Below, piece by piece: positions 3,054 to 64,000 of a stretch of DNA of 64,000 bases; position 1 is the first letter of the stretch; each line of letters begins with the position of its first letter. The stretch lies in the NCBI GenBank assembly GCA_964631985.1, contig CAZWAX010000002.1, forward strand, positions 2,129 to 66,128, written 5' to 3'. Source of the stretch: an uncultured Polyangiaceae bacterium. Lineage in GTDB: Bacteria; Desulfobacterota; Binatia; UTPRO1. The translations under genes and the position numbers were made by a program. The notes beneath the pieces were generated by a model, which was not told where the DNA came from, ran no database searches, and worked only from the letters and a program-made list of their open reading frames with translations.

Positions 3054-4414
3054 CGGTTAGGCGCGGCCAGACGACACGACGAGCGTTGGCAATTCTCCGC
3101 CTCTTGGGCACCGTCGGCGTCCTTTGCACACGTGTGCCCTCGAGCATGGCCGACGTCGTGACGCTCGAGGAAGCCTGTGCCGCGGCCGTGCATACGCACG
3201 AACGGATCGCGGCGGCCGAGGCCGATGAGGAACGCGCGGCCGTTGCTCCGTGGCGCGCGCTCAGTGCTCTCGGTCCGTCGGTCCACGGTACCGGCTCGTT
3301 CACTCGCGAAAAAGACGCCATCGCGTTCCCAACCCAGGCTGGTGTTCCCTCGGATAGTTTCAACCCGTTGATTCTCGCGAAAGACCCTTTGCGGGCTTCG
3401 CTCAGCGTGACTCAACCGCTCTACACGCACCAATTCTGGGCGCTCCGCGATCTCGGCAAGTCCGAGGTCGCGCGGAGTGCGGAAGCCTATCGCGCGACTG
3501 TGCAGGACATCGTCCTCGCTGTCACGGCAGCGTACTACGACGCGCTACGGGCCCGCACACTGCGCGCTGTGGCCGACGAAGCGGCACGACTTGCCGATGC
3601 CGAGGCGGTCCATGCGCGCACTCGCCTAGAAGTCGGCGAAACGATGCGCACCGATGTACTCCGCGCGGAGACTGAGATCGCGAGAACCGCGCAGCGAGTG
3701 GCCGAGACAACAGGGGCGGTCGAAGTCGCATCGATGACACTCTCTCGGCTAACAAGACTCCGCGAACCTTTTGAATTGGAAGATCCGCCGCCGCGGCGGC
3801 TGAGTGCGGACTCCCCAGCGCCGATCGTCGCGACCGCGCTGCTGCACAACCCGGACCTCCAGCAAGCGCTAGCCGCACTCGAAGCGGCGCGCGCTGAAGA
3901 AGCACGGCGGGAGGCCGCGCTGTATCCGACGCTCGCAGTGCAGGGGAGCTACCGATTGGTGAATCAGGAAACCTTCGTTGAGCTCAACAACTTCTGGCAG
4001 GTCGTCGTGGGTATCGAGATCCCCCTCTTCGAAGCAGGAGGCGCGCGCTATCTGGACGTGGCGGAGCAACGTGCCCGCGTCAAGAATGTCGCCGCGCAAG
4101 TGGCCGGACTGCAGCGCGACCTCGAGGTCGACGTCGGCCGCGCCTTTGTGACGGCCCGCACACTCGAACAGCAGGAAGCCACGGCTGAGAAGGAAGCGGC
4201 CCTTGCGGTCGACAGCTATCAACTGCTCTCCCGCCAATACCAAGGCGGGGCCGCCACCAGCCTCGATGTCCTCACCGCGCTCACTGCGCGCGCTGCCGCT
4301 CAGAGCAATCGCGCCGTCATCCGGTACGCGCACGCTATTGCCCTCGCCCAGCTCGACCGCCTCGCGGGTACGCTTGGCGTTTCCGATGCCGCACGTCCCG
4401 CGGAGAGGCCCTAG
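3050..4414 (+). CDS. TolC-family outer membrane efflux protein
   Basis: GTG start overlaps the upstream stop (GTGA). N-terminal signal-peptide-like segment (RRALAILRLLGTVGVLCTRVPSSMA). Coiled-coil and beta-barrel repeat pattern typical of OEP/TolC proteins. Confidence 0.8.
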   Translation: MTVRRGQTTRRALAILRLLGTVGVLCTRVPSSMADVVTLEEACAAAVHTHERIAAAEADEERAAVAPWRALSALGPSVHGTGSFTREKDAIAFPTQAGVPSDSFNPLILAKDPLRASLSVTQPLYTHQFWALRDLGKSEVARSAEAYRATVQDIVLAVTAAYYDALRARTLRAVADEAARLADAEAVHARTRLEVGETMRTDVLRAETEIARTAQRVAETTGAVEVASMTLSRLTRLREPFELEDPPPRRLSADSPAPIVATALLHNPDLQQALAALEAARAEEARREAALYPTLAVQGSYRLVNQETFVELNNFWQVVVGIEIPLFEAGGARYLDVAEQRARVKNVAAQVAGLQRDLEVDVGRAFVTARTLEQQEATAEKEAALAVDSYQLLSRQYQGGAATSLDVLTALTARAAAQSNRAVIRYAHAIALAQLDRLAGTLGVSDAARPAERP

Positions 4415-17862: not shown

Positions 17863-18179
17863 ACATGGCCCGGTGCACGCAGCCGGAGGATCCTGAGCTC
17901 ACCATCGAGAAGCTCGCCGGCGTTTTCGACGTGATGAAGCCCCATCTCGTCGCAACCTATGAGGCAACGGCGCGCGGCACCGATCAAATCGCCGATGCCC
18001 CGACCGTCGAGCTGCTGGAAGACATCGTCCGGCGCACTCGGCACCATGTCGCCTGGGGTCAGGAGGTGCTCGACCGGTTGTGCGACACCCCGGCGAAGCG
18101 AGAACGACGCCGTCTCCGCGCGACGAAGCTCCAGGCCAGCGTATGTGCCTGTGGTGGCGTCACGGCCGAGCTATCATGA
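17856..18179 (+). pseudogene. C-terminal relic of protein-Z family (paralog of 56127-56795), N-terminally truncated
   Basis: 107 aa aligning to the C-terminal half of the 222-aa protein Z (PEDPELTIEKLAGVFDV..PH.VATYE.TAR.TDQIADAPTVELL..IVRR). The N-terminal ~120 aa are absent. Confidence 0.5.
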
Positions 18180-51001: not shown

Positions 51002-51664
51002 TTGCTCTTACTCGGCATGGATTCCGAGGAAGCGCAGGACCGGCGCCCGATTCCTCGGCACTTCCCTGACTTCCGCGCTGCCCGGCGCAGACTGCTCGTC
51101 GGCCAGAGTCTGATGGTGGTCGGCGTTGTGTGGGGGCTAGCTCTCGCCTATGCTTTGTGGGTTTGGCTGCTCGACCCACTGCAGCGTTCGTGGGTCTTCT
51201 TCTGCTACGCGTGGGAGGTCCCGCTTGTCGGCGGGCTCGCCACAGTCGGGCTGCCGGTATGGTGGCTGACGGAGATCGAGCGTTGTCATCGCGCCCGCAG
51301 GCCCGAGGATGAGCCGCCGGACGCGGAGCACATCGCGGCGATGCTGGTCTGGTTTCCCACCCGCGTCGCCGTGACGTGTTTCGCCGCCAGCGTGATCGGG
51401 TATGCGCTCGGTGGTGTCCAGCTGAGAACCTTCGCAAATCTTCCGTGGGCCGAACTCGAGAAGCTCGGGACGCTCGGGATGGTCACCGATGGGCGAGCGG
51501 CCGATCGCTACGGGCCGGCATCTACGGACGACACCACCGAACACGCGGAAGGTTGCTATCTTTCACGCCGGCGGCGACCCAGTCGGGGATGTCGAAGTCG
51601 ACGTTCAAGGTGGCCATTGGAGCGGTCCCCTACCCTGAAATCTCGTGTTGCTTACGCATCATAA
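51002..51664 (+). CDS. hypothetical membrane protein (3 predicted TM helices), possibly a fragment
   Basis: Three hydrophobic stretches. The C-terminal tail is Arg/Ser-rich low complexity. No recognisable domain. Confidence 0.3.
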   Translation: MLLLGMDSEEAQDRRPIPRHFPDFRAARRRLLVGQSLMVVGVVWGLALAYALWVWLLDPLQRSWVFFCYAWEVPLVGGLATVGLPVWWLTEIERCHRARRPEDEPPDAEHIAAMLVWFPTRVAVTCFAASVIGYALGGVQLRTFANLPWAELEKLGTLGMVTDGRAADRYGPASTDDTTEHAEGCYLSRRRRPSRGCRSRRSRWPLERSPTLKSRVAYAS

Positions 51665-51684
51665 GGTGCTGGTTATGATGCACT
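51621..51684. repeat. ~60-bp imperfect direct repeat copy A (att-like), with internal hairpin gcatcataa/ttatgatgc
   Basis: agcggtcccctaccctgaaatctcgtgttgcttacgcatcataaggtgctggttatgatgcact matches 60243-60305 at roughly 80%. Shared blocks agcggtcccctac, ttgcttacgcatcataa, ttatgat. Confidence 0.7.
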
Positions 51685-51835
51685 AGCGGCGGAGGGCCTT
51701 GAGCCACGGACGTTTCCGAGGCGTGGCCGGCAAGCCCGGCGGTAGGGCACCTTGCGCCTCGCGGCGAAGCGCGGCGTAGAACGGGTAGAGATTCTGACGG
51801 ACCTCTGGGAGGAACGGATTGGACCCCAGTCATGG

Positions 51836-52510
51836 CTATCTCGCTTTCCCCACTCGCGGCCGCGTTCGTCGAGCAGTTGCCACCGCCGACGGGCTGAAGA
51901 GCGCGGAGACCAGCTCGTCCGCCGCGGGTAGCAGAGTCTCGAACGATTCCTCTGGCGTCCGGGTGATCCAGTCCGTAGCGGCAGCCGTCAGGATGCCCAC
52001 GAGAGCAACCGCCGCGAGCCGCGGATGGAGAGTCGAACGAAAAGCGCCTGCGCGAATCCCCTCGCGGCATGTTCCCTCAAGGAACTCGAGAAACGCCAGA
52101 TGGTGATCGTGGACCTGTTCGCCCAACTCGGCTTTGACGTTCCAGAGGAAGCCGCCGGTCACGTGCACGTAGATTTGGAAGAGGTGCTTGCGCGCGCCAA
52201 AGAAGTCGAAGAAGGCTCGGACCAGACGCTCAACTTTTTCGGGCGGTGATGTCACCTGCATCATCGCGTCGCGCAGGTGCTGCGCTATCTGGGGGAGCCG
52301 TCGCTCGACCACTGCGGCAAAGAGCGCATCCTTGCTGTCAAAGATCGTATACAGCGTGCCCGTCGCGTACTCGGCTTCACGCGCGATCTCCTGCATCGTC
52401 GCCTCGTGAAACCCCTTGCGAGCGAAGACGCGCTCGGCGACGTCGAGGACTTGATCCCGCCGCCACTCAAGCGCCCGTTGCTGTCGGGATAGCGGCTTCG
52501 GTTGGGTCAT
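51836..52510 (-). CDS. TetR family transcriptional regulator
   Basis: HTH (ATMQEIAREAEYATGTLYTIF). Start at the internal Met (MTQPKPL). Divergent from the MBL/X/ferritin/Z operon. Confidence 0.8.
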   Translation of the reverse strand: MTQPKPLSRQQRALEWRRDQVLDVAERVFARKGFHEATMQEIAREAEYATGTLYTIFDSKDALFAAVVERRLPQIAQHLRDAMMQVTSPPEKVERLVRAFFDFFGARKHLFQIYVHVTGGFLWNVKAELGEQVHDHHLAFLEFLEGTCREGIRAGAFRSTLHPRLAAVALVGILTAAATDWITRTPEESFETLLPAADELVSALFSPSAVATARRTRPRVGKAR

Positions 52511-52703
52511 CAGTGGAGGGCCTCCCCGAAGGCGGCCGTGACATCGCCGAGCCGCACGAATTCCTCCCCCACAGTCATCTTCGATCCCGACCGCCAAGGA
52601 CGGACCATTGGGGCCGCGCGCCACTCTAAGAGAGTCACTCGTGTATAGTCTACGTCGGCATTGACTTACTTGCAATGCTCTCCTAGAAACTGAATTCTCG
52701 TTC

Positions 52704-54050
52704 ATGGCGGACCAACTTGAAGCGCGGATCACGTGGCGGTTGGTGGCGACCAAGGCGGGCGACCTCCGTCTGTATCGGGTCGACGCTGCACCCCTCGGCC
52801 TCGCCACGCCCGGTCGCGACTTCGACCCGCTCGACCTGCTCCTCGCCCAATTTCCGAACCCCAGCACGGCACAGGTTCGTTCCGAGTTCGCGGAGGCGGG
52901 TGCGCCCGTCGGCGCGAGCTCGCTCGAGGTCGCGTGTCACGTGGTGTCGACACCCGACACTATGTTGATCGTCGACTCGACGTTCCGGCGCACGGCACCG
53001 CATGTCTTTCCGCGCGTGCTCGAGGAGATCGCCCGCCACGAGTCGCGTCACACAGGATCGCGGCCAATCGAGGTTCTCTACACGCACGCGCACTTCGACC
53101 ATGCGGGCGGCCGGGCCGCGATCGAGGGACTCGGCGCCGGCGTGACGACGCTCGCGCACCCCTACACTCGCGCGCTCTTCCCACTCGTGAGCCGCCCGGA
53201 GACGATGTTCCGGTCGAAAGGGCAGTTCCTGCGCGATTGCGGCATCACGCCACCGATGGAAGAGCTGTTCGCCGGCTACAGCGCAGCCCGCGAGCAACTC
53301 CTCGACCGGGCGCCCCGCCACCTAGACCTCGGACTTTTTCGGAGCGCGGAGGAGTCAGGGCTCCGCGTCGACCGAGTCATCGACCCAGCGGTCGAGCCCG
53401 TTGCGCTCCTTGGTGGGCGCGCCGAGGTGCTCCGCTTTGACGGCCACATTCCCGGCCATCTGTGCCTCCTGGTCGACGGCGGGCATCTCATCACCGGCGA
53501 CATGTGGCTCCCGGCGACGACCTCCACCGTCACGCCCGGCAGCCTCGCGGCGCAGGTCGGTGTCCCGGCGGAGACGTGTGGGGTGCTTCGCTATCTCGAA
53601 TCGAGCGAACGACTCCTCGCCGCTCCACTCGACAACTGCCTTTCCTATCCCAGTCACGAGGACATTTTTCGCAACCCGAAGCGGATGGCGCTGCGCGATC
53701 TGGAGGTCGTCGCAGCGAGCGCTGACCACGTCTATCGTGTGCTCGAGGAGCATCGCGCCCTCCCCATGCGGGTGCTTGACCTCACCTGGGGCGGCACGAG
53801 TCGCCTCCCGATCTGGAAGCTTCGGGGGAGCAAGTACCGTCTCCTGCTCGCACATGACGAGGCTACAGCGTGGGTCGAGGACCTGCTCCGGGCGGGAGAC
53901 CTGCGCGAGGTCGAGCCCGAGCGCTACGTATGGTCGGGCGGACGAACGCTGTGGCAGCGCGTCCACGAAGCCCGGGAACGTGCCCGTGCGCTGCATGGAG
54001 CTCTCGAGTTCCGGAGCCGTGGGCGTGCAAACATGCAGCCGGCGCCCTGA
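52704..54050 (+). CDS. MBL-fold metallo-hydrolase with long C-terminal extension
   Basis: YTHAHFDHAGG motif. Same architecture as 39213-40328. Confidence 0.75.
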   Translation: MADQLEARITWRLVATKAGDLRLYRVDAAPLGLATPGRDFDPLDLLLAQFPNPSTAQVRSEFAEAGAPVGASSLEVACHVVSTPDTMLIVDSTFRRTAPHVFPRVLEEIARHESRHTGSRPIEVLYTHAHFDHAGGRAAIEGLGAGVTTLAHPYTRALFPLVSRPETMFRSKGQFLRDCGITPPMEELFAGYSAAREQLLDRAPRHLDLGLFRSAEESGLRVDRVIDPAVEPVALLGGRAEVLRFDGHIPGHLCLLVDGGHLITGDMWLPATTSTVTPGSLAAQVGVPAETCGVLRYLESSERLLAAPLDNCLSYPSHEDIFRNPKRMALRDLEVVAASADHVYRVLEEHRALPMRVLDLTWGGTSRLPIWKLRGSKYRLLLAHDEATAWVEDLLRAGDLREVEPERYVWSGGRTLWQRVHEARERARALHGALEFRSRGRANMQPAP

Positions 54051-54068
54051 GCGCCATGAGGTGAGCGG

Positions 54069-55145
54069 ATGAAGCTCAGCTACACGAACGATGAGATCAT
54101 GGCCGAGGCGGACTACGCGTCTCGCCTCCGCTGCGGCAAGGTGCTCTTTCACGGTGGGCTCGACGCCCGGGGTCGCTACGTTCCGCCCCGGTCGCGTAAC
54201 CGCCTGGCGGCCATTGCCGCCTGGACGGAGCGACTGCGTTCCGAAGGCCACGCGACGCAGGTGGTGACGATGGCGCAGGTCGAGCGCGAGTTCTTCCCGA
54301 ACGTCGCGCAGAGCAAGTGTCTGCTGCGACACGGCGCGCGCGACGCGATGACGCGCATGCTGACGCTCATCGGCATCACGGAGGGGTTCGGCAACGACGG
54401 CATCAAGATCATGCCGCGCCTCGATCTCCAGCAGTTCTTCAAGGAATCCATCGCCGACACCTGTCTCGCCCACCTACACGGCGGCCTCTTCGAGGCGCAC
54501 GGCAACGACGAGGCGGGGCGTGGTGAGGAGGCAGGCCACGACGTGATGTGGTTCCAGATCCGGGACGCAGCGCTCGAGAACCCGCGCATCACGCCCGACA
54601 TGTTCGAGAGTCTGCCGATCGCGCCGCCACCAGGCTACACCGGACCCGCAAAACCATCACCCGATGCGCTGAGCGTGGGCGATCTCGTCGAGCGGGCGGT
54701 GCCAGCGCTGGACCCCATGCTCGAGATCCTCCTATCCGCGCTGGCACAGATCCTAGTCATCGAGCTCATGGCCTACTCGACCTTCCGCTGGGCCCAGGAG
54801 GTTCTCGCCGACGCCGAGTGCTCGGCCGCTCCAGCGTTCGCACCGCAGATGGTCGACTACATCCAGGCTGACGAGAACATCCACGTGAGCTACCTCCAGT
54901 GCGCGCTCGCTGAGGCCCGGGCCCGGACGCTCATCGCCCAGGAGGGGCGGGAGCTGCCGGGGACGCACGTCGTCGACACGATCTGCGATCGAATCGTCCG
55001 TCGGAACACCGGCAGCCGGTGGGAGCGGATGATGGCGTACCGGATGAACCAGATTCGCAAGGAGATGGCCGCCCGTCCCGACGGCGAGCGGATCCTCGCC
55101 GAGTTCGCAGCCCTCGGCCCCGTTCCCCAGGCGGCAGCGGCCTGA
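54069..55145 (+). CDS. hypothetical protein X (unknown function; paralog of 1959-3053)
   Basis: 358 aa. Conserved blocks shared with 1959-3053. Repeated E/H-containing motifs (EAHGNDE, ADENIHV) hint at metal binding. Confidence 0.75.
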   Translation: MKLSYTNDEIMAEADYASRLRCGKVLFHGGLDARGRYVPPRSRNRLAAIAAWTERLRSEGHATQVVTMAQVEREFFPNVAQSKCLLRHGARDAMTRMLTLIGITEGFGNDGIKIMPRLDLQQFFKESIADTCLAHLHGGLFEAHGNDEAGRGEEAGHDVMWFQIRDAALENPRITPDMFESLPIAPPPGYTGPAKPSPDALSVGDLVERAVPALDPMLEILLSALAQILVIELMAYSTFRWAQEVLADAECSAAPAFAPQMVDYIQADENIHVSYLQCALAEARARTLIAQEGRELPGTHVVDTICDRIVRRNTGSRWERMMAYRMNQIRKEMAARPDGERILAEFAALGPVPQAAAA

Positions 55146-55170
55146 ACGAACCATCATACGGAGGTAACCC

Positions 55171-56130
55171 ATGCGCCGCTTCATTACCCACGACGAGCTG
55201 GCCCGCGACCGCCGGTTCATACGGCAAAATCTGATCGCGGACCTGATGGCCTCGCTTCCCGACGACGTCGACACCGTGGTCGAGGCGTTCGAAAACCTCG
55301 GACCGATGATCGCGGTGTCGGTGCAAACGACACCATTGGCCGAGGTCTTCGACGCCTACGGCCCGGGCTTCCTCCTCACCATCCTGAACGAGCCGCTCGA
55401 CCCTGACGATCCGGTCGCGCTGTTGCGTCTCAAAGTGCGCATGCACGGCATCTTCATGGGCGAGATGCAGGCGCTCGAGGGGGCCGGGCGGACGCTCTGG
55501 GACTTCCCGGACGCGCCGTGGGAGTTCAAGATGAACATGGCTCGGCAGTGTTGGGACGAGGCGCGCCACGTGCAGATCTACGAGAAGCTCCTCACGCACG
55601 TGGGCGGCACGGTCGGGATGTTCCCGGAGAGCACGTTTCTCTTCGAGGCCGCCTGCGCAGATGACCCGGTCCTGCGCGTCGCCGGCGTGAATCGTGGCCT
55701 TGAGGGCCTCGCCTGCGACGTCTTCCGCGACATGATCCGCTATGCCGAGAAGACCGGCGACGAAGTCCTGAGACAGGCGGTGGACTACGTGCTCGCCGAC
55801 GAGCTGACGCACGTGCGCTTCGGGAGCGAATGGGTGAAGGAGTTCACCCGGGACGACCCCGAGCGCGCGGCACGAGCCAAGGAGTTCCAGCTCGCGGTGG
55901 ACAAGAAGTTCAGCATCGGCGGCACCCGCTCGGGGCGCGAGGACGCCTCGATCCCGGTCGCCGTCGCCGACCGCAAGGAGGCCGGCTTCACCGACGGCGA
56001 GATCGAGGATCTCTACCGCGTGTCGGCGGAGGGACCGACGCGGCCGACGCTCCGGAAGGCGGCCGCGATCCTGCGCGAGCGGCACCTCGCGCGGAAGGCG
56101 GCCCAGGCCGTGGAGGCGGAGCGCTCATGA
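55171..56130 (+). CDS. ferritin-like domain protein (putative diiron-carboxylate protein)
   Basis: CWDEARHVQIYEKLL and ADELTHVRFGSEW (ExxH motifs). GGAGGT RBS. ATGA overlap with the next gene. Confidence 0.7.
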   Translation: MRRFITHDELARDRRFIRQNLIADLMASLPDDVDTVVEAFENLGPMIAVSVQTTPLAEVFDAYGPGFLLTILNEPLDPDDPVALLRLKVRMHGIFMGEMQALEGAGRTLWDFPDAPWEFKMNMARQCWDEARHVQIYEKLLTHVGGTVGMFPESTFLFEAACADDPVLRVAGVNRGLEGLACDVFRDMIRYAEKTGDEVLRQAVDYVLADELTHVRFGSEWVKEFTRDDPERAARAKEFQLAVDKKFSIGGTRSGREDASIPVAVADRKEAGFTDGEIEDLYRVSAEGPTRPTLRKAAAILRERHLARKAAQAVEAERS

Positions 56131-56795
56131 CCGCCGAGGCGCGCCGCTACCCCGGGCACCGAGACGACGAGCGGACCCCTTTCGAGCCATACTCGGCGTT
56201 CGACATTCCGGCCGACCTCCGTGCGCTCCACGGGCGGTTCGACGTCGAGGCGACCGCGCGGCGGGTACGCAATTTCCGCTACGCGGAGGAGTGGCTGATG
56301 ATGATCCTCGGCGGCTGGGTGGCGACGATCCCCGAGCTGCCGGTCAAGACCGGCCTTGGTAAGATCATCTGGGACACGGCGCAGGCGGCCGACGCTCTCG
56401 GCAGCCGGCTCCCGGAGCTTCGCGCTGGTCGGAATCCGAACACCGCCTCAGCGGCGGCCAACGGCGGTTTCGCCAAACTCATTCAGGCGGTCGCGGAGCC
56501 GGAGGATCCCGAGCTGACCATCGAGAAGCTCGCGGGCGTCTTCGACGTGCTGACGCCGCACGTCGTTGCCACGTACGAGTGGACGGCACGCCACACGGAT
56601 CAGATCGCGGATGCGCCCACGGTCGAGCTGCTCGACGAGATCGTACGCAGGAAGCGCCAACACCTCGCCTGGGGCCGCGAGGTACTCGAGCGCTTGTGCG
56701 ACACCGATGCGAAGAAAGAGCGTCGGCGCCTTCGGTCCCGCGTACTGAACGCACAGCTCGAGGGATGTGGCGGCATCACCGGGGAGCGCGTGTAG
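56127..56795 (+). CDS. hypothetical protein Z (unknown function, helical; a truncated paralog lies at 17856-18179)
   Basis: 222 aa. ATGA-coupled to the ferritin-like gene. Contains FRYAEEW and TYEWTARHTDQIAD blocks. Confidence 0.65.
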   Translation: MTAEARRYPGHRDDERTPFEPYSAFDIPADLRALHGRFDVEATARRVRNFRYAEEWLMMILGGWVATIPELPVKTGLGKIIWDTAQAADALGSRLPELRAGRNPNTASAAANGGFAKLIQAVAEPEDPELTIEKLAGVFDVLTPHVVATYEWTARHTDQIADAPTVELLDEIVRRKRQHLAWGREVLERLCDTDAKKERRRLRSRVLNAQLEGCGGITGERV

Positions 56796-57250
56796 TGCCG
56801 CTCACCACCGCCCCGAAGTTCGATCAGTTCGATCAAGCCATCGCCCAGGCGTTTCTGAACGCCAGCGAGGTTGCGAGCGGGTTGCCGGGATATCTCGGCG
56901 TTCGTGTCGTGGAGATCGGACCCGGGCGCCTGGTCGCATCGCTCGACGCTCGGCAGGAACTCCTGACGCCGTTTGGGACCCTCCACGGTGGCGTCATGGC
57001 GGCCTTCGTGGATCACGTCCTCGGGTGCGTCCTCTATCCCCTGATGCAGCGCGGCCAGTGGGCCGCGACGACGGAGTTCAAGCTGAACTACCTGGCTCCC
57101 GTCCGAGGTGGGACGTTGTTAGCCGAATCGACGGTCATCTCCATGGGCCGGCGCGCCGCCGTCGTGCGCGTCGAAGTCGCCAATGACGATCGCTTGGCGT
57201 GCACGGCACAGGGAACCCTCCTCATCTCCGATCCGCCCGGACGGGGGTAA
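56795..57250 (+). CDS. PaaI/4HBT-family hotdog thioesterase
   Basis: GTG start overlapping the protein-Z stop. Contains the hotdog motif LHGGVMAAFVD. Confidence 0.7.
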   Translation: MPLTTAPKFDQFDQAIAQAFLNASEVASGLPGYLGVRVVEIGPGRLVASLDARQELLTPFGTLHGGVMAAFVDHVLGCVLYPLMQRGQWAATTEFKLNYLAPVRGGTLLAESTVISMGRRAAVVRVEVANDDRLACTAQGTLLISDPPGRG

Positions 57251-57252
57251 GC

Positions 57253-58407
57253 ATGAAGGTATCACTCTTCTACCTTCCGTCGATCGGCAGCCGTGCCGAG
57301 ATCGAGCGTGGCATGGCCGGCCTTCGCGGGGACCTCTACCAGCGGATGCTGCACGAGCTCGTCGAGCAGGCCAAGATGGCGGACCAGCTCGGCTACGATT
57401 CTATTAGCTTCACGGAGCATCATTTTCACGTCGAAGGCTTTGAGTTGTCGAACAATCCGGTGATGCTCGACCTCTTCGTCGGCATGCAGACCAAGCACAT
57501 CCGCGTGGGGCAGCTCGGTATCGTCCTTCCCGCGGACAATCCGCTTCGCGTCGCGGAGGACATCGCGATGCTCGACCACATGACTGGCGGGCGCGCGAAC
57601 GCCGGGTTCGCCCGGGGGTACCAGCGCCGTTGGGTCGACGTCATGGCGCAGCAGCTCCACGGCATCCACGGAGCCCAGCCGCACCAGCACGACGCGATCG
57701 ATGAAGCCAACCGCGGCGCGTTCGAGGAGTCCTTTCGCATCATCAAGAAGGCGTGGACCGAGGACATGCTGTCCTACCAGGGTCGCTACTGGCGCATTCC
57801 GCCGGGCGAGACGCCGTGGAACGTCGAGTCGAGTCTCCGTTACGGCGCAGGAGTAGAGGACGGCATGGTGCGCGCCGTCGGCGTAGTGCCAAAGCCGCTT
57901 CAGAAGCCGCACCCTCCCATCTTTCAGCCGTTCGCATCGTCGGAGCGCAGTATCCGGTGGTGTGCGGAGGAGGGGGTGACGGCGATCCTGCCTCCGCTTC
58001 ATCCCCGACTCGAGGAGCGCCTGGTGCGCCTCTACGCGGAGGTATCGGGGAAGCCCCCGGGAGACGGCATCGGGGTGCTCCGCGACCTCATCGTGGCACC
58101 AACCGACGAGGAAGCGCTCGCGCTGTGGGCCGACAGCGGAGTCTTCTGCGGTGGGGAGTGGTTCGAGCCGTTCGGATTCTCCCGAGGTTTGGCCGATCCC
58201 GACACCGGGGAGCTCCCCGACATCCTGGGCCAGAGCCTCGCCCTCGTTGGATCGATTGACACCGTAACGAAGCAGCTCGAGGCGCTACGGACGCGCCTTC
58301 CGGTCCGCTGGTTGTTCGCCTGGACTTACAACGGGCTCGTGCCGCACGATCGAATCATGCACTCGCTATCCCGTTTCGCGACGCGCGTGTTGCCGAGAGT
58401 CTCATAG
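57253..58407 (+). CDS. LLM-class flavin-dependent oxidoreductase (luciferase-like monooxygenase)
   Basis: [11 protein letters not shown]-terminus, FTEHHF, LLM TIM-barrel pattern. Confidence 0.85.
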   Translation: MKVSLFYLPSIGSRAEIERGMAGLRGDLYQRMLHELVEQAKMADQLGYDSISFTEHHFHVEGFELSNNPVMLDLFVGMQTKHIRVGQLGIVLPADNPLRVAEDIAMLDHMTGGRANAGFARGYQRRWVDVMAQQLHGIHGAQPHQHDAIDEANRGAFEESFRIIKKAWTEDMLSYQGRYWRIPPGETPWNVESSLRYGAGVEDGMVRAVGVVPKPLQKPHPPIFQPFASSERSIRWCAEEGVTAILPPLHPRLEERLVRLYAEVSGKPPGDGIGVLRDLIVAPTDEEALALWADSGVFCGGEWFEPFGFSRGLADPDTGELPDILGQSLALVGSIDTVTKQLEALRTRLPVRWLFAWTYNGLVPHDRIMHSLSRFATRVLPRVS

Positions 58408-58502
58408 CGTCGTCGCTGCGGAGCGCACGGCGCTCAGCTTGGACGAGCGCGGGATCGGATATCCGCGGTTGCGTCGGCGACCAGATCCGAACGTCGCTTC
58501 GG

Positions 58503-58850
58503 TTACGTCGTAGCCCGCTGCGGCTGGAATTTCAGCACACCCGCTTCGGCATCTAGCTGCGGCAGCACCGTGACGATCGGCTCACGGGTTGCACGGGCCA
58601 CGGCCTCGGCGATCGAGCCGGCCCGCGCCAATTCGGCGAGATTCATGCGCGTCGGAAAGATGATCGTGCGCCGGCCCGCATCGGCCGCGGCAAGTGCCGC
58701 GTCGGGAGCGACCCATGCGGAATCGACGGACTCCGTACCATCGTGGAGGGCAAGCTGATCAGCAGGCGCGATGGCAAGGAAGAAGTGCGTGTCGTAGCGC
58801 TTCGGCATCACCTCACGGGTGATCCAATGGGCGACGGGGAAGAGTTCATC
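58503..58850 (-). pseudogene. possible NUDIX-hydrolase-like C-terminal remnant
   Basis: C-terminal tail YDTHFFLA...DGTES..AWV.P.AAL resembles the region downstream of a Nudix box. The upstream part of the ORF is low-complexity and no Nudix box is present. Confidence 0.25.
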
Positions 58851-60242
58851 GAGCGTAACCGGAGAGGGCAGGGAATGGAGTCCCCCCTTTCGCGGACGTT
58901 GAGCACTCGCGGGGTGGGATCTAGGCGAGTCGTCAGCGGACAAAGGCACGACTTTCACTGTTCGTCTGCTGCCTCGCAGGTTTTCCCAGCAGCCCGACGA
59001 TGTGAAGTGGCGGTGCCGGAGAGGCAACGGCGCGCCCGATGGCCGGGCGCAAGGGTGTTCAGGCCCGACGACGCTGTGCCTCCGCTTTGTCGCCCAGCAG
59101 GCACAGCATGATCTGGTCTCGCCGTCGTCGCCGTTCCGCCATCGGTAACGCCTCGCACACCGCGCAGAGCACGAGCGCGTCGGGATTCGCGACGGCATTC
59201 GTTGAAGGCGCGCGACCGACCATCAGCAGTCGATCGCAGAGAACACAGCGCGCGGCGGGCATGGCTTCCCTTTCATCCCTTCGGCGCGCGTCGTCAATTC
59301 CGGAGTGTTACAGAGGGGGTGTAGGCACGCCGGGATGGCGCTTCCCTAACGCAAAGCGCCAAATGGGAGCACGTCGTATTATGCTAGCGTCCACTGCATG
59401 CGAGCCCCGAACGTGACCGGATCGTTCGGGAAGCGGCGACGGCCTCGGACGGTGCGCGGCGGTCGTATCTCGCCGCGACTGCGGCGGCAGACAGGCTTGG
59501 TCTCTCGCCGCGACGTGGACGACTGCTTTGAGCGGACACGCCGCGCGGTCCATCGTTCGGCCATAGGCGCGACCCAGCCGGATGTTCATGAGAACTGCGG
59601 CGCCGCGGATCACTCACCATACGCGAGTTCGTCCATCACCGGGGCGACCACGGGCAACGCTTGCGCTTCTGACGCCCGCGACCCTTCCAAAAGAGTGAGC
59701 CTCGCCCGATTTCGACAGTGCCAATCTTTTCGCCCTCGTGAAAGACCTCGAGCATTAGCGACGTCCCGGTCTTCGTGAGTTCGTGAACATGGAGCGTCGC
59801 TTAAGCGGTATGGGTTTGGCGTCGCGTGACCTTCGCTTCCTCTTAGTCGGCATGACGGGAATCCGTATTCGGAATCGGCTCGACCTTAGTAGCCTACCGA
59901 CCGCGAGCGAGACATGATCTATGCGCGAGGCGTCCGCCGCTGTCCCTTTGGACTGCGTGGGCGCCGTACCGAGGGTACAGCCCGCAGACAACGCAGGCTT
60001 CGCTCATCAATTCGCCCCGGCGTGGTTGGTCTGCCTTGGCAGAGTTCGACCGTGCTTGGCCTATACGCGGCTGCTCAGGGGACGCCATCGGAGGAACTGC
60101 CCGACGGGACGAGGACATGGTCCATTCTGTAGCAGTGAACCTTGCCGTGACCAACCGGCGCGCAGACGTGTGCAGTCTGGGTTCTTGATCAGTTCGTAGT
60201 GCAGCTCGCGGACTCTTGAGGCTTTCATCGAAGCCGGATTCC

Positions 60243-60305
60243 AGCGGTCCCCTACTCTGAATCCTTCGTCTTGCTTACGCATCATAAAGGACGTTATGAT
60301 ACTCT
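60243..60305. repeat. ~60-bp imperfect direct repeat copy B (att-like)
   Basis: agcggtcccctactctgaatccttcgtcttgcttacgcatcataaaggacgttatgatactct. It lies immediately upstream of the small ORF and the tyrosine integrase. Confidence 0.7.
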
Positions 60306-60339
60306 GAGAACATCGGGAAACCTAGAAGAGGGGTCGGAA

Positions 60340-60615
60340 ATGGACGGCGATGAGGACGGTCAGATCGAGGGGCCAAAAATGTCGCCGGCGACGTCGGCCG
60401 CGGCCGAACTCAGCGCGCGGATCGACGAGGTCGTGCGATCGTTCGAAGCCCGCGTTCCGGATCCGCTGCCAGCGGACACGCTTCAAGCTCTGCGGGCCGA
60501 GGTCCTCCAGCTCGCGCGCGCCCATGCCGCCCGAACGGTCCTCGAGACCGTCACGGCCCGATATGCGGCTCGACACCCGCCGCGGCCGCGGCGCCCCTGG
60601 AGCCGCCGGCCGTGA
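60340..60615 (+). CDS. small hypothetical protein upstream of the integrase (excisionase-like position)
   Basis: 91 aa. Its stop overlaps the integrase GTG start (GTGA). Confidence 0.35.
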   Translation: MDGDEDGQIEGPKMSPATSAAAELSARIDEVVRSFEARVPDPLPADTLQALRAEVLQLARAHAARTVLETVTARYAARHPPRPRRPWSRRP

Positions 60616-61643
60616 GGCCCGAGGATCCGATCATGCCTGAACCCTGGGAACTCGCCGTCGTCGAGAAGCCGAAGCGGCTGAGCGCTGAGGATTGCGCGAT
60701 GGTGCCGGCGCTGATTCGCAGCGCCGGCGACCGTGCGGCATGGCGCTTTCTCGAGTTCTTCACCGCGAACATTCGAAACAAGAACACCCGGATCGCCTAT
60801 GCGCGTGCCGTACGGCTCTTTTGCGACTGGCTCGACGAGCGCGGCATCCACGATCTTGCTCACGTGAACCCCGTCTTCGTCGCCGCGTACGTGGAGCATC
60901 TCGGCGAGCGCTTCTCGAGGCCCACAGTGAAGCAGCACCTCGCGGCCATCCGAATGCTGATGGACTATCTCGTGACCGGCGGAGTTCTGCCCTTCAACCC
61001 CGCCGCGGCCGTTCGCGGGCCCAAGCACGTTGTGAAGCGGGGAAAAACTCCGGTGCTTTCTGCTGCCGAAGCCAGGCAGCTCCTCGACTCGATCTCGCTC
61101 GCCGGCGACGACGGATCCGTTGACATTGTGGGTCTTCGCGATCGCGCACTCATCGGCCTCATGGTCTTCAGCTTCGCTCGGGTCGGCGCTGCCATTTCGA
61201 TGCGCGTTGAAGACTACTACGCGGAAGGCAAACGGTGGTGGTTCCGATTGCACGAGAAAGGCGGCAAGCGACACGAGGTTCCCGCGCATCACAACGCCGA
61301 GGCATACATGGACGCTTATCTCGAGGCGTCGGGTCACAAGGCGGAGAAGCGTTCCCCCCTCTTCCGCACCACCCGCGGCCGCAGCGGTGAGCTCACCCCG
61401 AAGCCGATGCACCGGGTAGATGCTCTTCGGATGATCAAGCGCCGCGCTAAGGCGGCCGGGTTACCCGCTGCAGTCTGCTGTCACACGTTCCGTGCGACCG
61501 GCATCACCGCCTACCTCGAGAACGGCGGCACGATCGAGAACGCGCAAGCGATCGCCGCGCACGAGAGTCCCCGCACGACTAAGCTCTACGACCGCACCGA
61601 CGACGCGATCACGCTCGACGAGGTTGAGCGAATCGCTATTTAG
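60612..61643 (+). CDS. tyrosine-type site-specific recombinase/integrase
   Basis: C-terminal catalytic region with R...HxxR...Y (CHTFRATGITAYL, ESPRTTKLYD). Confidence 0.85.
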   Translation: MRPEDPIMPEPWELAVVEKPKRLSAEDCAMVPALIRSAGDRAAWRFLEFFTANIRNKNTRIAYARAVRLFCDWLDERGIHDLAHVNPVFVAAYVEHLGERFSRPTVKQHLAAIRMLMDYLVTGGVLPFNPAAAVRGPKHVVKRGKTPVLSAAEARQLLDSISLAGDDGSVDIVGLRDRALIGLMVFSFARVGAAISMRVEDYYAEGKRWWFRLHEKGGKRHEVPAHHNAEAYMDAYLEASGHKAEKRSPLFRTTRGRSGELTPKPMHRVDALRMIKRRAKAAGLPAAVCCHTFRATGITAYLENGGTIENAQAIAAHESPRTTKLYDRTDDAITLDEVERIAI

Positions 61644-61883: not shown

Positions 61884-61917
61884 GTGCCTGGTCGTCCATG
61901 GTTGGTCGACCAGGCAC
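61884..61917. terminator. 11-bp perfect inverted repeat (gtgcctggtcg / cgaccaggcac) with a 12-nt loop; possible terminator or operator
   Basis: Stem-loop lying between the small ORF stop (61875) and the TcmP start. No U-tract follows. Confidence 0.3.
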
Positions 61918-61952
61918 ACCGACACCGCGTAGGTGCTCCCCGAAAGCAGCTC

Positions 61953-63077
61953 ATGAGTTCATTCTTCGATGAAACCACCGCTCAGTCGGCCATCAAGGCC
62001 AAAATCGTCAGCGACTACTTTTGGGCGTGGGCGAAGGTCATCATCCCCACCGCTAAGAAACACGGCGACCGCATCGGCTACATCGACCTCTTCGCTGGCC
62101 CGGGCCGCTACGCAGACGGGACGAAGTCAACGCCACTCCTGGTTCTGGAGAAAGCTATTGGCGACGCTGACATGCGGCGCATGCTTGTCACGCTCTTCAA
62201 CGACGCCGACCCCGACAACATCGCATCCCTTGAAAAGGAAATCGCTGCCCTGCCAGGCATCGAGAAACTCAAACATAAACCGATTGTTCGGAACCAAATC
62301 GTCGACACAGAGGTAGCCAAGTTCTTCAGTGGCAGGAACGTCATCCCGAGTTTCTTCTTCATCGACCCGTGGGGCTACAAGGGACTTTCGCTGGACCTCA
62401 TCAATTCTGTCCTCAAGGACTGGGGATGTGACTGCGTCTTCTTCTTCAACTTCAACCGCATCAACATGGGGGTAACGAACGAAGCGGTCGCGCCTCACCT
62501 CAATGCGCTCTTCGGAGAGCAGCGTGCCGAAGCCCTTAGAGTGCTTCTCCCTACGCTGGCGCCGCCACAGCGCGAACTCGCCATCGTCGAGAACCTCGTC
62601 GAGGCGCTCAAGGAGAAGGGAGCGGGCTACGTGTTGCCGTTCTGCTTCAAGAACGAGCAGGGCACCCGGACGAGCCACCATCTTGTCTTCGTCACAAAAC
62701 ACCCCAAGGGCTACCAGATCATGAAAGACATCATGGCGCGCGAGAGCTCGTCTGCAGAGCAGGGCGTGCCCTCCTTCGACTACAATCCCGCACCCACAGA
62801 CCCGCAGATGAAGCTGCTCTTTGAGCTCGCTCGCCCTCTCGACGACCTCGCGGGTATGCTGCTCGAGCGCTTCGCCGGCCAGACTTTGACGGCAGGAGAA
62901 GTCTTCGAGAGACACAATGTCGGCACTCGGTTTATAGGACGCAACTACAAGGATGTGCTTCGCAAGATGGAAGCCGAAGGCCTAATCAAGACGAACCCAC
63001 CGGCTCCGCAAAGGCGGAAGCTAAAGGGCGAAGTGACCTTTGCGGACCGGGTCGTCGTGAAGTTTCCGAAAAGGTGA
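61953..63077 (+). CDS. three-Cys-motif partner protein TcmP-like
   Basis: N-terminus MSSFFDETTAQSAIKAKIVSDYFWAWAKVI resembles the recalled TcmP family. Lower GC and A/T-ending codons. 3-nt gap to the downstream Gp37/Gp68 gene. Confidence 0.7.
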   Translation: MSSFFDETTAQSAIKAKIVSDYFWAWAKVIIPTAKKHGDRIGYIDLFAGPGRYADGTKSTPLLVLEKAIGDADMRRMLVTLFNDADPDNIASLEKEIAALPGIEKLKHKPIVRNQIVDTEVAKFFSGRNVIPSFFFIDPWGYKGLSLDLINSVLKDWGCDCVFFFNFNRINMGVTNEAVAPHLNALFGEQRAEALRVLLPTLAPPQRELAIVENLVEALKEKGAGYVLPFCFKNEQGTRTSHHLVFVTKHPKGYQIMKDIMARESSSAEQGVPSFDYNPAPTDPQMKLLFELARPLDDLAGMLLERFAGQTLTAGEVFERHNVGTRFIGRNYKDVLRKMEAEGLIKTNPPAPQRRKLKGEVTFADRVVVKFPKR

Positions 63078-63080
63078 TGA

Positions 63081-63833
63081 ATGGGCGCTAACTCCGCCAT
63101 CGAGTGGACTGAGGCGACTTGGAACCCCGTTACCGGGTGCGACAAGATAAGCCCCGGCTGCAAGCACTGCTACGCGGAACGCATGGCTGAACGGCTGCAA
63201 GCCATGGGTCAGCGGAACTACCGGAACGGCTTTGAGCTAACACTGCAAGAGCATGCCCTCCGACTTCCGCTCTCCTGGAAGAAACCACAGACCATCTTCG
63301 TGAACTCGATGAGCGACCTCTTCCACGTCGACGTTCCCGCAAGTTTCATCGCACGTGTCTTTGACGTCATGTGTCGCGCCGCCTGGCATCACTTCCAGGT
63401 CTTGACGAAACGGGCCGAGCGACTCGAGGAGCTCGCGCCGTCGCTCCCCTGGCAGCCGAACATCTGGATGGGTGTCAGCGTCGAGCGCGCAGACTACACC
63501 TTTCGCATCGACCACCTCCGGCGAACGAATGCCGGCACGAAGTTTTTGTCTCTCGAACCGCTTCTCGGTCCTCTGGCCGACTTGAACCTCGCTGGAATCG
63601 ACTGGGTCATCGTGGGTGGCGAGTCAGGACCAGGGGCTCGACCAATGGCAGGGGATTGGGTGAGCGACATCCGCGACCAATGCCTCCGTGCCGGCGTGCC
63701 TTTCTTCTTCAAGCAATGGGGCGGTGTGAACAAGAAGAAGACTGGACGCCTCCTAGAGGGCCGCACCTGGGACGAAATGCCCCATCCGTCGCGTGCATCG
63801 GCACCTCTGGCCGCCTCCGACCTGCGCGGGTGA
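63081..63833 (+). CDS. phage Gp37/Gp68 family protein (DUF5131, three-Cys motif)
   Basis: N-terminal [14 protein letters not shown] and Cys triad [11 protein letters not shown], characteristic of the DUF5131 family. Confidence 0.8.
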
Positions 63834-64000
63834 GAATCGCCACCAATCATTGTCGCGCACAACCATCCGTCGGGAGACCTTACGCCATCGGATGCTGATC
63901 GCTCAGTTACGAAGCGTCTCGCCGAAGCTGGCTCTCTCCTAGGCATCCCGCTCCTCGACCACCTCATCGTGACCGGCGCGGGATTCTACTCCTTGCAGGA
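63834..64000 (+). pseudogene. RadC-family JAMM domain C-terminal fragment (N-terminus missing; runs off the window)
   Basis: [43 protein letters not shown] matches the RadC JAMM core HNHPSG...D. No start codon. It is in frame with, and directly after, the Gp37/Gp68 stop. Confidence 0.55.

Follow-up and report, generated by a model that had tools for sequence, protein, structure and literature searches.

A dif-like site beside a Xer-like tyrosine recombinase gene, and its probable orphan copy, in DNA of an uncultured Polyangiaceae bacterium

We analysed a 64,000-nt stretch (the window) of contig CAZWAX010000002.1 from an uncultured Polyangiaceae bacterium, in which two imperfect direct repeats of about 60 bp, copies A and B, bracket an 8.6-kb block of genes running from a TetR regulator to a luciferase-like monooxygenase (LLM). 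Copy B adjoins a gene for a Xer-like tyrosine recombinase (the integrase). An original prediction, made from the letters of the sequence, took the two repeats for attL and attR of an integrated element. Our analysis favours a different assignment, to which we give a probability of about 0.6: copy B would be the cognate site of the adjacent recombinase, and copy A a relic, an orphan cassette that is no longer the partner of B. This corrects the map of the region, placing the mobile DNA to the right of copy B and not between the repeats. The features on which the argument rests are listed below; relatives are cited by their locus numbers.

51621-51681, plus strand: copy A
51621-51655, plus strand: left block of copy A, homologous to the left block of copy B
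51656-51681, plus strand: core of copy A, with arm GCATCATAA (51656-51664), aberrant 8-nt centre GGTGCTGG (51665-51672) and arm TTATGATGC (51673-51681)
51682-51705, plus strand: weak continuation of copy A (CACTAGCGGCGGAGGGCCTTGA), similar by eye to the post-site leader of L087 (CACTAGGTGTCGACGAAAGCCTAGA)
60243-60302, plus strand: copy B
60243-60278, plus strand: left block of copy B, about 40 bp (GCGGTCCCCTACTCTGAA...CTTGCTTAC), the left margin of the conserved site-integrase module
60279-60302, plus strand: core of copy B, with arm GCATCATAA (60279-60287), 6-nt centre AGGACG (60288-60293) and arm TTATGATAC (60294-60302)
60340-60615, plus strand: open reading frame (ORF) of 91 amino acids (aa) between copy B and the integrase gene (gene calls in L001)
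60612-61643, plus strand: Xer-like 'simple' tyrosine recombinase of 343 aa, with PF02899 (residues 56-121) and PF00589 (residues 150-330)

Both repeats were recovered where they had been predicted. Copy A (51621-51679) and copy B (60243-60300) are 83.3% identical over 60 aligned columns (E = 4e-10, blastn over the whole window) and lie in direct orientation, and blastn detected no similarity beyond them in either flank. The 17-mer TTGCTTACGCATCATAA occurs exactly at 51648-51664 and 60271-60287 and nowhere else in the window with up to three mismatches. Similarly, the left block AGCGGTCCCCTACYCTGAA has exactly two occurrences in the window, also with three mismatches allowed, while shuffled sequence is expected to contain 0.02-0.04 occurrences of such strings (0.02 for the 17-mer). 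These 17 identical base pairs lie outside the centre, in the left arm and the sequence flanking it. The internal hairpin that had been noticed corresponds to a dyad present in both copies, each with GCATCATAA as its left arm, and its stem is 9 bp long in copy A and 7 bp in copy B. No other instance of CATAA-N5-9-TTATG occurs in the 64 kb, and the exact pattern TTGCTTACGCATCATAA-N4-12-TTATGAT had no match in 185,579 reference genomes, which implies that this sub-lineage is unrepresented there.

As predicted, copy B lies just upstream of a small ORF and the integrase gene: it ends 38 nt before the 91-aa ORF, which in turn overlaps the integrase start by 4 nt. The DNA of this ORF is conserved in L087, L101 and L195, L090 and most of the family lack it, and its product has no Pfam match. 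The integrase comprises a SAM-like core-binding domain and a catalytic domain without an arm-binding domain, the composition of a 'simple' tyrosine recombinase; a classification scheme for these enzymes has been published (PMC8138268). Its catalytic residues R190, K219, H291, R294, H317 and Y326 align with R148, K172, H244, R247, H270 and Y279 of XerD and are invariant in 22 relatives, as expected of a tyrosine recombinase. The top NCBIfam model is XerD with 111.6 bits against a cut-off of 329.6, and XerC gives 97.3 bits against 335. Relatives of the integrase number more than 8000 proteins at E < 1e-20, and 558 of 600 candidate stretches from one-genome-per-species references encode one. They are 60-75% identical across Planctomycetota, Acidobacteriota, Gemmatimonadota, Pseudomonadota, Verrucomicrobiota, Binatia and other groups, and are carried by 145 plasmids, many of just 12-50 kb. 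The genes adjoin mobile-element and defence genes, with no neighbour gene conserved across 79 loci, and some loci carry several integrase copies. A phage origin is unlikely, as we found only three distant phage matches and only one of the eight viral contigs that contain the exact 16-mer of the site centre (see below) has an integrase; the remaining viral matches look like chance ribosome-binding-site-plus-ATG sequences.

The site accompanies the recombinase throughout this family. We surveyed 79 genome loci (L003-L081) from at least six phyla and made a stricter recount over 81 integrase copies. The exact 16-mer CATAAAGGACGTTATG, which is the centre of copy B (CATAA-AGGACG-TTATG), is found upstream of the integrase gene in about 50 of the 79 loci. 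In the stricter recount, a site of the AGGACG centre class precedes 60 of the 81 integrase copies, with exact AGGACG in 47, at a median distance of 36 nt from the gene. A site-model search gave one site per integrase in 87 loci. The consensus of 54 centre-anchored sites, tG.atCATAA-AGGACG-TTATGat.Ca, describes a dyad of about 12 + 6 + 12 bp, whose arm complementarity exceeds expectation to about position 14 from the centre. The arms covary: 83 double-change cells were counted against 37.7 +/- 5.9 in shuffled alignments (none of 500 shuffles reached 83), and over 13 arm pairs 83% of cells were paired, compared with 25-47% when the partner was slid. G.T combinations account for 23 of the 136 non-Watson-Crick cells, which is the chance level, and in about one locus in four the centre points away from the gene (50 facing the gene vs 10 inverted in the stricter recount; about 53 vs 20 in the site-model count). 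These last two observations point to a double-stranded DNA dyad bound by a dimer and not to an RNA hairpin. With a covariance model built from the 54 family sites, copy B scored 44.5 bits and copy A 27.7 bits (E = 5e-6), and the window held no third match. Copy B has the parts of a recombinase core site, namely two inverted arms, an asymmetric centre within the 6-8 bp range and a co-occurring recombinase. Its left block probably carries promoter or accessory sequence; a CCCCTAC/CCCTGC box recurs at the left-block position in distant loci.

On plasmids the site lies 400-800 nt from the integrase gene, preceding unrelated genes, where it heads a two-gene operon of a variable ORF followed by the integrase. 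In three of these plasmid loci (L082, 5107-6981; L084, 1984-3740; L083, 4485-5921) the variable gene overlaps the integrase start by 4 nt. The products include a CAP12/Pycsar TIR-domain protein on one Burkholderia plasmid, a DUF2513 protein and proteins with no family match. The 4-nt overlap, common to the plasmids and to the 91-aa ORF of the window, suggests that the site drives joint expression of cargo genes and integrase.

Comparison with close relatives delimits the conserved module. What they share with the window extends from about 40 bp left of the palindrome through the integrase stop codon, in unrelated flanks: L101 is 91% identical in DNA over window positions 60246-61641 and L195 90.8% identical over 60270-61643. 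The module is also shared by L087 and by L090, the latter minus the leader and the small ORF, and L090 and L091 share it with each other. Homology of copy B with L101, L087, L090, L003 and copy A begins within about 3 bp of position 60243, and leftward of it the flanks are unrelated; directly 3' of the integrase stop codon, no conservation was found among the compared close relatives. Further to the right, a radC segment of L195 is 91.5% identical to window positions 63838-64000, and the L195 backbone right of the integrase, like that of L087, encodes ParE, DprA, PIN, RadC, DUF2726, ParA/B and BrxR. The GC content falls from about 0.66 to 0.57-0.60 right of the integrase gene, being already lower from about 59.3 kb, and that of the 8.6-kb block is 0.63-0.70 (window mean 0.657). 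Since relatives share the module and radC rightward and GC drops right of copy B, the element runs rightwards from about 58.9-60.2 kb. On this comparative evidence the site-integrase module forms the left margin of a mobile element that continues past the end of the window, and the block from TetR to LLM lies outside the element of the integrase.

These results bear directly on the attL/attR assignment. The repeat is indeed tied to the integrase, as a non-coding site of tyrosine-recombinase type and not as a repetitive extragenic palindromic (REP) sequence; a role of the copies as the attachment pair of the 8.6-kb block was not supported. The centres, where crossover would occur, are GGTGCTGG (8 nt) in copy A and AGGACG (6 nt) in copy B; being unlike in both length and sequence, they leave A and B unable to recombine as they stand, and the two are no simple product pair. 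Moreover, the complete site with its left block stands intact beside the gene in L101, L195, L087, L090, L003 and about 50 other loci, so copy B is not a hybrid attL junction. The bracketed DNA, which had been thought foreign, has genome-like GC, and the integrase, the low GC and the mobile backbone are all outside it, to the right of B. The original prediction had suggested a search for the repeat at tRNA 3' ends; the window contains no tRNA genes. Copies A and B probably do not mark the termini of an inserted 8.6-kb element.

Copy A, for its part, appears to be an orphan, centre-altered second copy of the 5' cassette of B, derived from the same sub-lineage. The family model fits its arms and treats its centre as an 8-nt insertion. 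Its left boundary, like that of copy B, is the one at which the module meets its flanks in other genomes, and the 17 bp of its left arm and flank are specific to the sub-lineage of copy B and L101. Its right arm makes a better palindrome than that of B, and its tail (CACTAG...) resembles L087. No integrase remnant was detected by tblastn downstream of copy A or elsewhere in the window. A second copy of a locus's own site region within 10 kb was found in none of 57 other loci, and a second dyad with arms of at least 9 bp in none of 86 loci (1.4 Mb); the site model reported extra sites in L051, L078 and L058 only. We rejected copy A as a terminator or promoter. We also rejected a reading of the repeats as minus-strand Shine-Dalgarno sequences of divergent genes, as the frames that would begin there, at 51617 and 60228, lack conservation, are short and stand at different spacings. 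In public assemblies a 215-codon ORF (ORF215; 51017-51664, plus strand) is called as a gene, and its stop codon TAA falls inside the left arm of copy A. A search of 5.8 billion proteins returned only the ORF itself, and it is therefore unlikely to be a genuine gene.

If copy B is the cognate site, two recombinase monomers would bind its arms, two such sites would synapse, and strands would be exchanged at the borders of the 6-bp centre. Such an exchange would resolve multimers, or fuse or separate replicons that carry the site, as in Cre/loxP, XerS/difSL and R. etli IntA/attA. The site also overlaps the promoter and translation start of the integrase gene, so binding of the recombinase probably autoregulates its own gene as well. 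Copy A may then be the leftover of an earlier element or recombination event, its integrase gone and its centre replaced.

Several known systems offer precedents. Cre/loxP of P1, ResD/rfsF and TnpI/IRS each combine a simple tyrosine recombinase with a symmetric core site that lies near or overlaps its own promoter and is present once per replicon. The geometry of loxP is different (13 + 8 + 13), and the Cre-type likeness is one of layout. The E. coli dif site is GGTGCGCATAA-TGTATA-TTATGTTAAAT (PMC2731167), and copy B matches dif in the inner 5 bp of each arm (CATAA/TTATG) and in the 6-bp spacing. XerS/difSL and XerH/difH are single-recombinase modules and thus comparable to the module described here, in which the inner arms are as in dif. 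However, those systems are vertically inherited, act in chromosome-dimer resolution and lie at the replication terminus, whereas the family in the window occurs on plasmids and islands, can be multi-copy, keeps its 60-75% identity between phyla and has the centre AGGACG. The integrase scores far below the cut-offs of the XerC, XerD and XerS models. We rejected canonical XerC/XerD-dif resolution on the basis of these sub-equivalog scores, the 145 plasmids, the mobile and defence neighbours, the multi-copy loci and the 91% DNA identity across unrelated contexts.

The att site of R. etli IntA consists of two palindromic arms (TCCGATAA) around a 7-bp centre, about 100 bp upstream of the recombinase gene, and att x att recombination fuses replicons, leaving the insert flanked by duplicated att sites (PMC4928290). 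The layout is the same as that of copy B, and the family sites of L083 and L031 carry the IntA arms (TCCGATAA...TTATCGGA). Membership of the IntA family was rejected, since IntA (382 aa) and the window integrase match with a BLASTP E value of 1.3; IntA is an analogue by likeness of layout. An integron likewise has a tyrosine recombinase with an adjacent site and genes bracketed by imperfect palindromic sites. We rejected this assignment as well: the TIGR02249 model gives 32.7 bits where its cut-off is 265, neither sites nor cassettes form an array, the bracketed DNA is a seven-gene operon region with its own regulator, and the site is a double-stranded dyad and not an attC. In pdif modules, known from Acinetobacter plasmids and the gonococcal island, blocks are bracketed by dif-like sites and recombined by the host XerC/D. 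The window differs in having a dedicated recombinase gene that adjoins the site, and a single bracket was seen in it. One account of pdif modules and IMEX elements at dif states that an imperfect site can stabilise an insert (PMC5790767). Taken together, the arrangement probably works like XerS/difSL, XerH/difH, Cre/loxP and IntA/attA, and by score or BLAST the integrase is not a member of the XerC/D, XerS, IntI or IntA groups.

The alternatives can be weighed against this background. The two sites might record a capture event, in which a circle carrying a family site and the TetR-to-LLM block recombined, through the integrase, with the resident site beside its gene, and the centre of copy A changed later, locking the insert in place. 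The outcome would be an insert between two direct repeats of the site, of the kind known from IntA att x att integration, from loxP insertion and from pdif modules. We regard this as unlikely. It accounts for the direct orientation, for the presence of arms and left block in both sites, as recombination between two sites yields, and for the integrase adjoining copy B. Replacement of the centre of A alone, at the would-be place of cleavage, fits selection against re-excision or a botched re-excision, but several mutations are needed for this, since the centres are unequal in length and disagree almost throughout. A hybrid origin of copy A is hinted at by its left part, nearest to B and L101, and its right arm and tail (GATGCACTAG), nearer to L087 and L090, but this mosaic signal rests on fewer than 10 nucleotides. 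Rare second sites after an integrase with toxin-antitoxin or NUDIX cargo (L051 and L078) would be in keeping with capture, but none of 57 other loci shows a comparable bracket. The block also has a genome-like GC content, its genes X, DUF455 and Z have paralogues or relatives in ordinary metabolic contexts, and it encloses a broken NUDIX gene together with 1.4 kb of junk DNA. A broader version, which we consider quite unlikely, treats the site as a pan-phylum, lox-like docking point: identity over 16 bp between phyla as far apart as Planctomycetota and Pseudomonadota would let the recombinase fuse or exchange any two site-bearing replicons or circles, and the bracket from A to B would be a captured 8.6-kb catabolic block, fixed by mutation of one centre. 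Were that true, the system would capture genes in a way that differs both from integrons and from pdif modules served by the host Xer.

The palindrome could, alternatively, be solely regulatory, serving as operator, promoter and ribosome-binding site or start codon of the integrase operon, with copy A a duplicated dead promoter fragment. The short median distance from site to gene (36 nt) is in line with this, as is the orientation of the centre, which faces the gene in most loci. In 10 of 54 loci the left-arm TATCAT has a TTGACA-like box 16 nt before it. In addition, AAGGACGTTATG of the site centre (e.g. 60287-60298) resembles a ribosome-binding site with a start codon (AAGGA-N4-ATG). In 13 of 47 loci this motif has a translational link with the integrase: its ATG opens the integrase ORF in 4, and in 9 the short ORF that it begins ends on the integrase start codon. 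This linkage gives a non-recombinational reason for an invariant centre, and for that reason we keep the regulatory explanation, very unlikely as it seems. The 12 + 6 + 12 dyad with CATAA/TTATG has the canonical core geometry of Xer-type sites, and the sole conserved neighbour is a recombinase. The 10-20 loci with an inverted centre lose the Shine-Dalgarno-like motif and keep the site, and the plasmid sites that lie 400-800 nt from the integrase precede unrelated genes. Resolution sites commonly overlap the promoter of their recombinase, and regulatory and recombination roles are compatible. Finally, a structured RNA or single-stranded-DNA hairpin, or a generic repeat of the REP or MITE (miniature inverted-repeat transposable element) kind unrelated to the integrase, is extremely improbable. 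The stems of 9 bp (A) and 7 bp (B) and the covarying arms would suit a hairpin, but the window has no Rfam family at gathering thresholds (relaxed thresholds gave chance-level matches alone), G.T pairs are not enriched and the loop is inverted in about a quarter of loci. The predicted transcription start, which falls inside the site where a locus has a clear promoter, and the absence of a T-run terminator at the site are further points against a hairpin. A generic REP-like repeat, which the original prediction had named as the finding that would count against it, does not match the two copies in 64 kb, the one-to-one tie of the site to the integrase elsewhere or the absence of the exact pattern from the reference genomes.

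Some observations weigh against our own assignment of copy B as the recombinase site. The link between family and site, including binding and strand exchange, is drawn from sequence comparison, and the invariance of AGGACG could be partly translational in origin. In other genomes there is a single site per locus, so a recombination partner is not documented. The sharp left boundary some 40 bp from the palindrome, common to A, B and the relatives, could be the real crossover point or element end. Finally, the arms of copy A are perfectly kept yet its centre is wholly replaced, which is odd for simple neutral decay.

Beyond this region, the follow-up exposes a family of simple tyrosine recombinases that is both very large and strongly conserved and has a 30-bp dif-like site, essentially invariant across phyla; we consider this cross-phylum invariance the most interesting by-product of the analysis. 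If the enzyme does recombine the site, the two would constitute a natural, broad-host-range pair of the Cre/lox kind, by which plasmids and defence or catabolic islands of soil bacteria might fuse and exchange modules. The site string was not found in the searchable literature, which is weak evidence that the site of this integrase family is undescribed.

The remaining features of the right-hand part of the window are as follows.

51836-52510, minus strand: TetR (Pfam)
52704-54050: MBL (Pfam)
54069-55145: X, an ORF without a Pfam family
55171-56130: DUF455, the ferritin-like gene (Pfam)
56127-56795: Z
56795-57250: 4HBT thioesterase (Pfam)
57253-58407: LLM, luciferase-like monooxygenase (Pfam)
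58551-58859, minus strand: 3' fragment of a NUDIX-like gene, residues ~135-245 of ~270 (HMMER search of a 231-aa ORF)
58860-60242: region of 1.4 kb without a recognisable gene, with falling GC
61884-63077, plus strand: TcmP
63081-63833, plus strand: DUF5131 / radical-SAM mobile-pair-A-like gene
63838-64000, plus strand: 3' segment of radC

The seven genes between the copies are those that had been predicted, and they form an operon region with its own regulator (51836-58407). Parts of X and Z have paralogues in the window, at 72-77% DNA identity (2319-2573 with 54423-54677 for X; 17878-18118 with 56494-56734 for Z). The original prediction saw in the repeats an explanation of how these genes were copied; no repeat copy lies near either paralogue (at about 2.3 kb and 17.9 kb), so the repeats fail to explain the duplications. 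DUF455 and Z recur together in many metagenome contigs (L104-L110) as a conserved set, with X nearby in either orientation, and the nearest metagenome relatives from a DUF455 scan share X, DUF455 and Z only. An empty site was not found: the contigs that carry the histidine kinase, ORF215 and integrase proteins are all of the same strain and have the same arrangement.

The 5' half of the NUDIX-like gene, which is not a gene of a mobile element, is missing from the whole window, which points to a rearrangement breakpoint near 58860. The region from there to copy B could belong to the foreign element, as its left end, or be border junk. A blastx search of the two gene-free gaps for pseudogenes, against all ORFs of the compared loci, returned the site itself as the sole match. 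Directly 3' of the integrase, TcmP (three-Cys-motif partner, with a GMT-like winged helix-turn-helix) and the DUF5131 gene form a known mobile pair.

Several relatives show related arrangements. Among the loci with extra sites, L051 (2130-2169) and L078 (12346-12361) have a second site 1-1.5 kb downstream of the integrase gene, in direct orientation; the sites bracket the integrase and PIN toxin-antitoxin genes in L051 and the integrase and a NUDIX gene in L078, and the bracketed segments are possibly small excisable units. The short ORF that starts at the site ATG is three codons long in 10 of 47 loci, and several of these read ATG-NNN-CAC-TAA/TAG. L101 contains, about 40 bp after its intact integrase gene, a 170-bp fragment (4081-4252) that resembles an integrase 3' end and is 68% identical to window positions 61436-61607; this fragment is the scar of a second module, comparable to the orphan copy A. 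In L091, compared with L195 and L090, the module lies between like neighbours (Czc heavy-metal efflux; RadC, Thoeris and ParE) in the opposite orientation, which suggests that it inverts or re-inserts independently.

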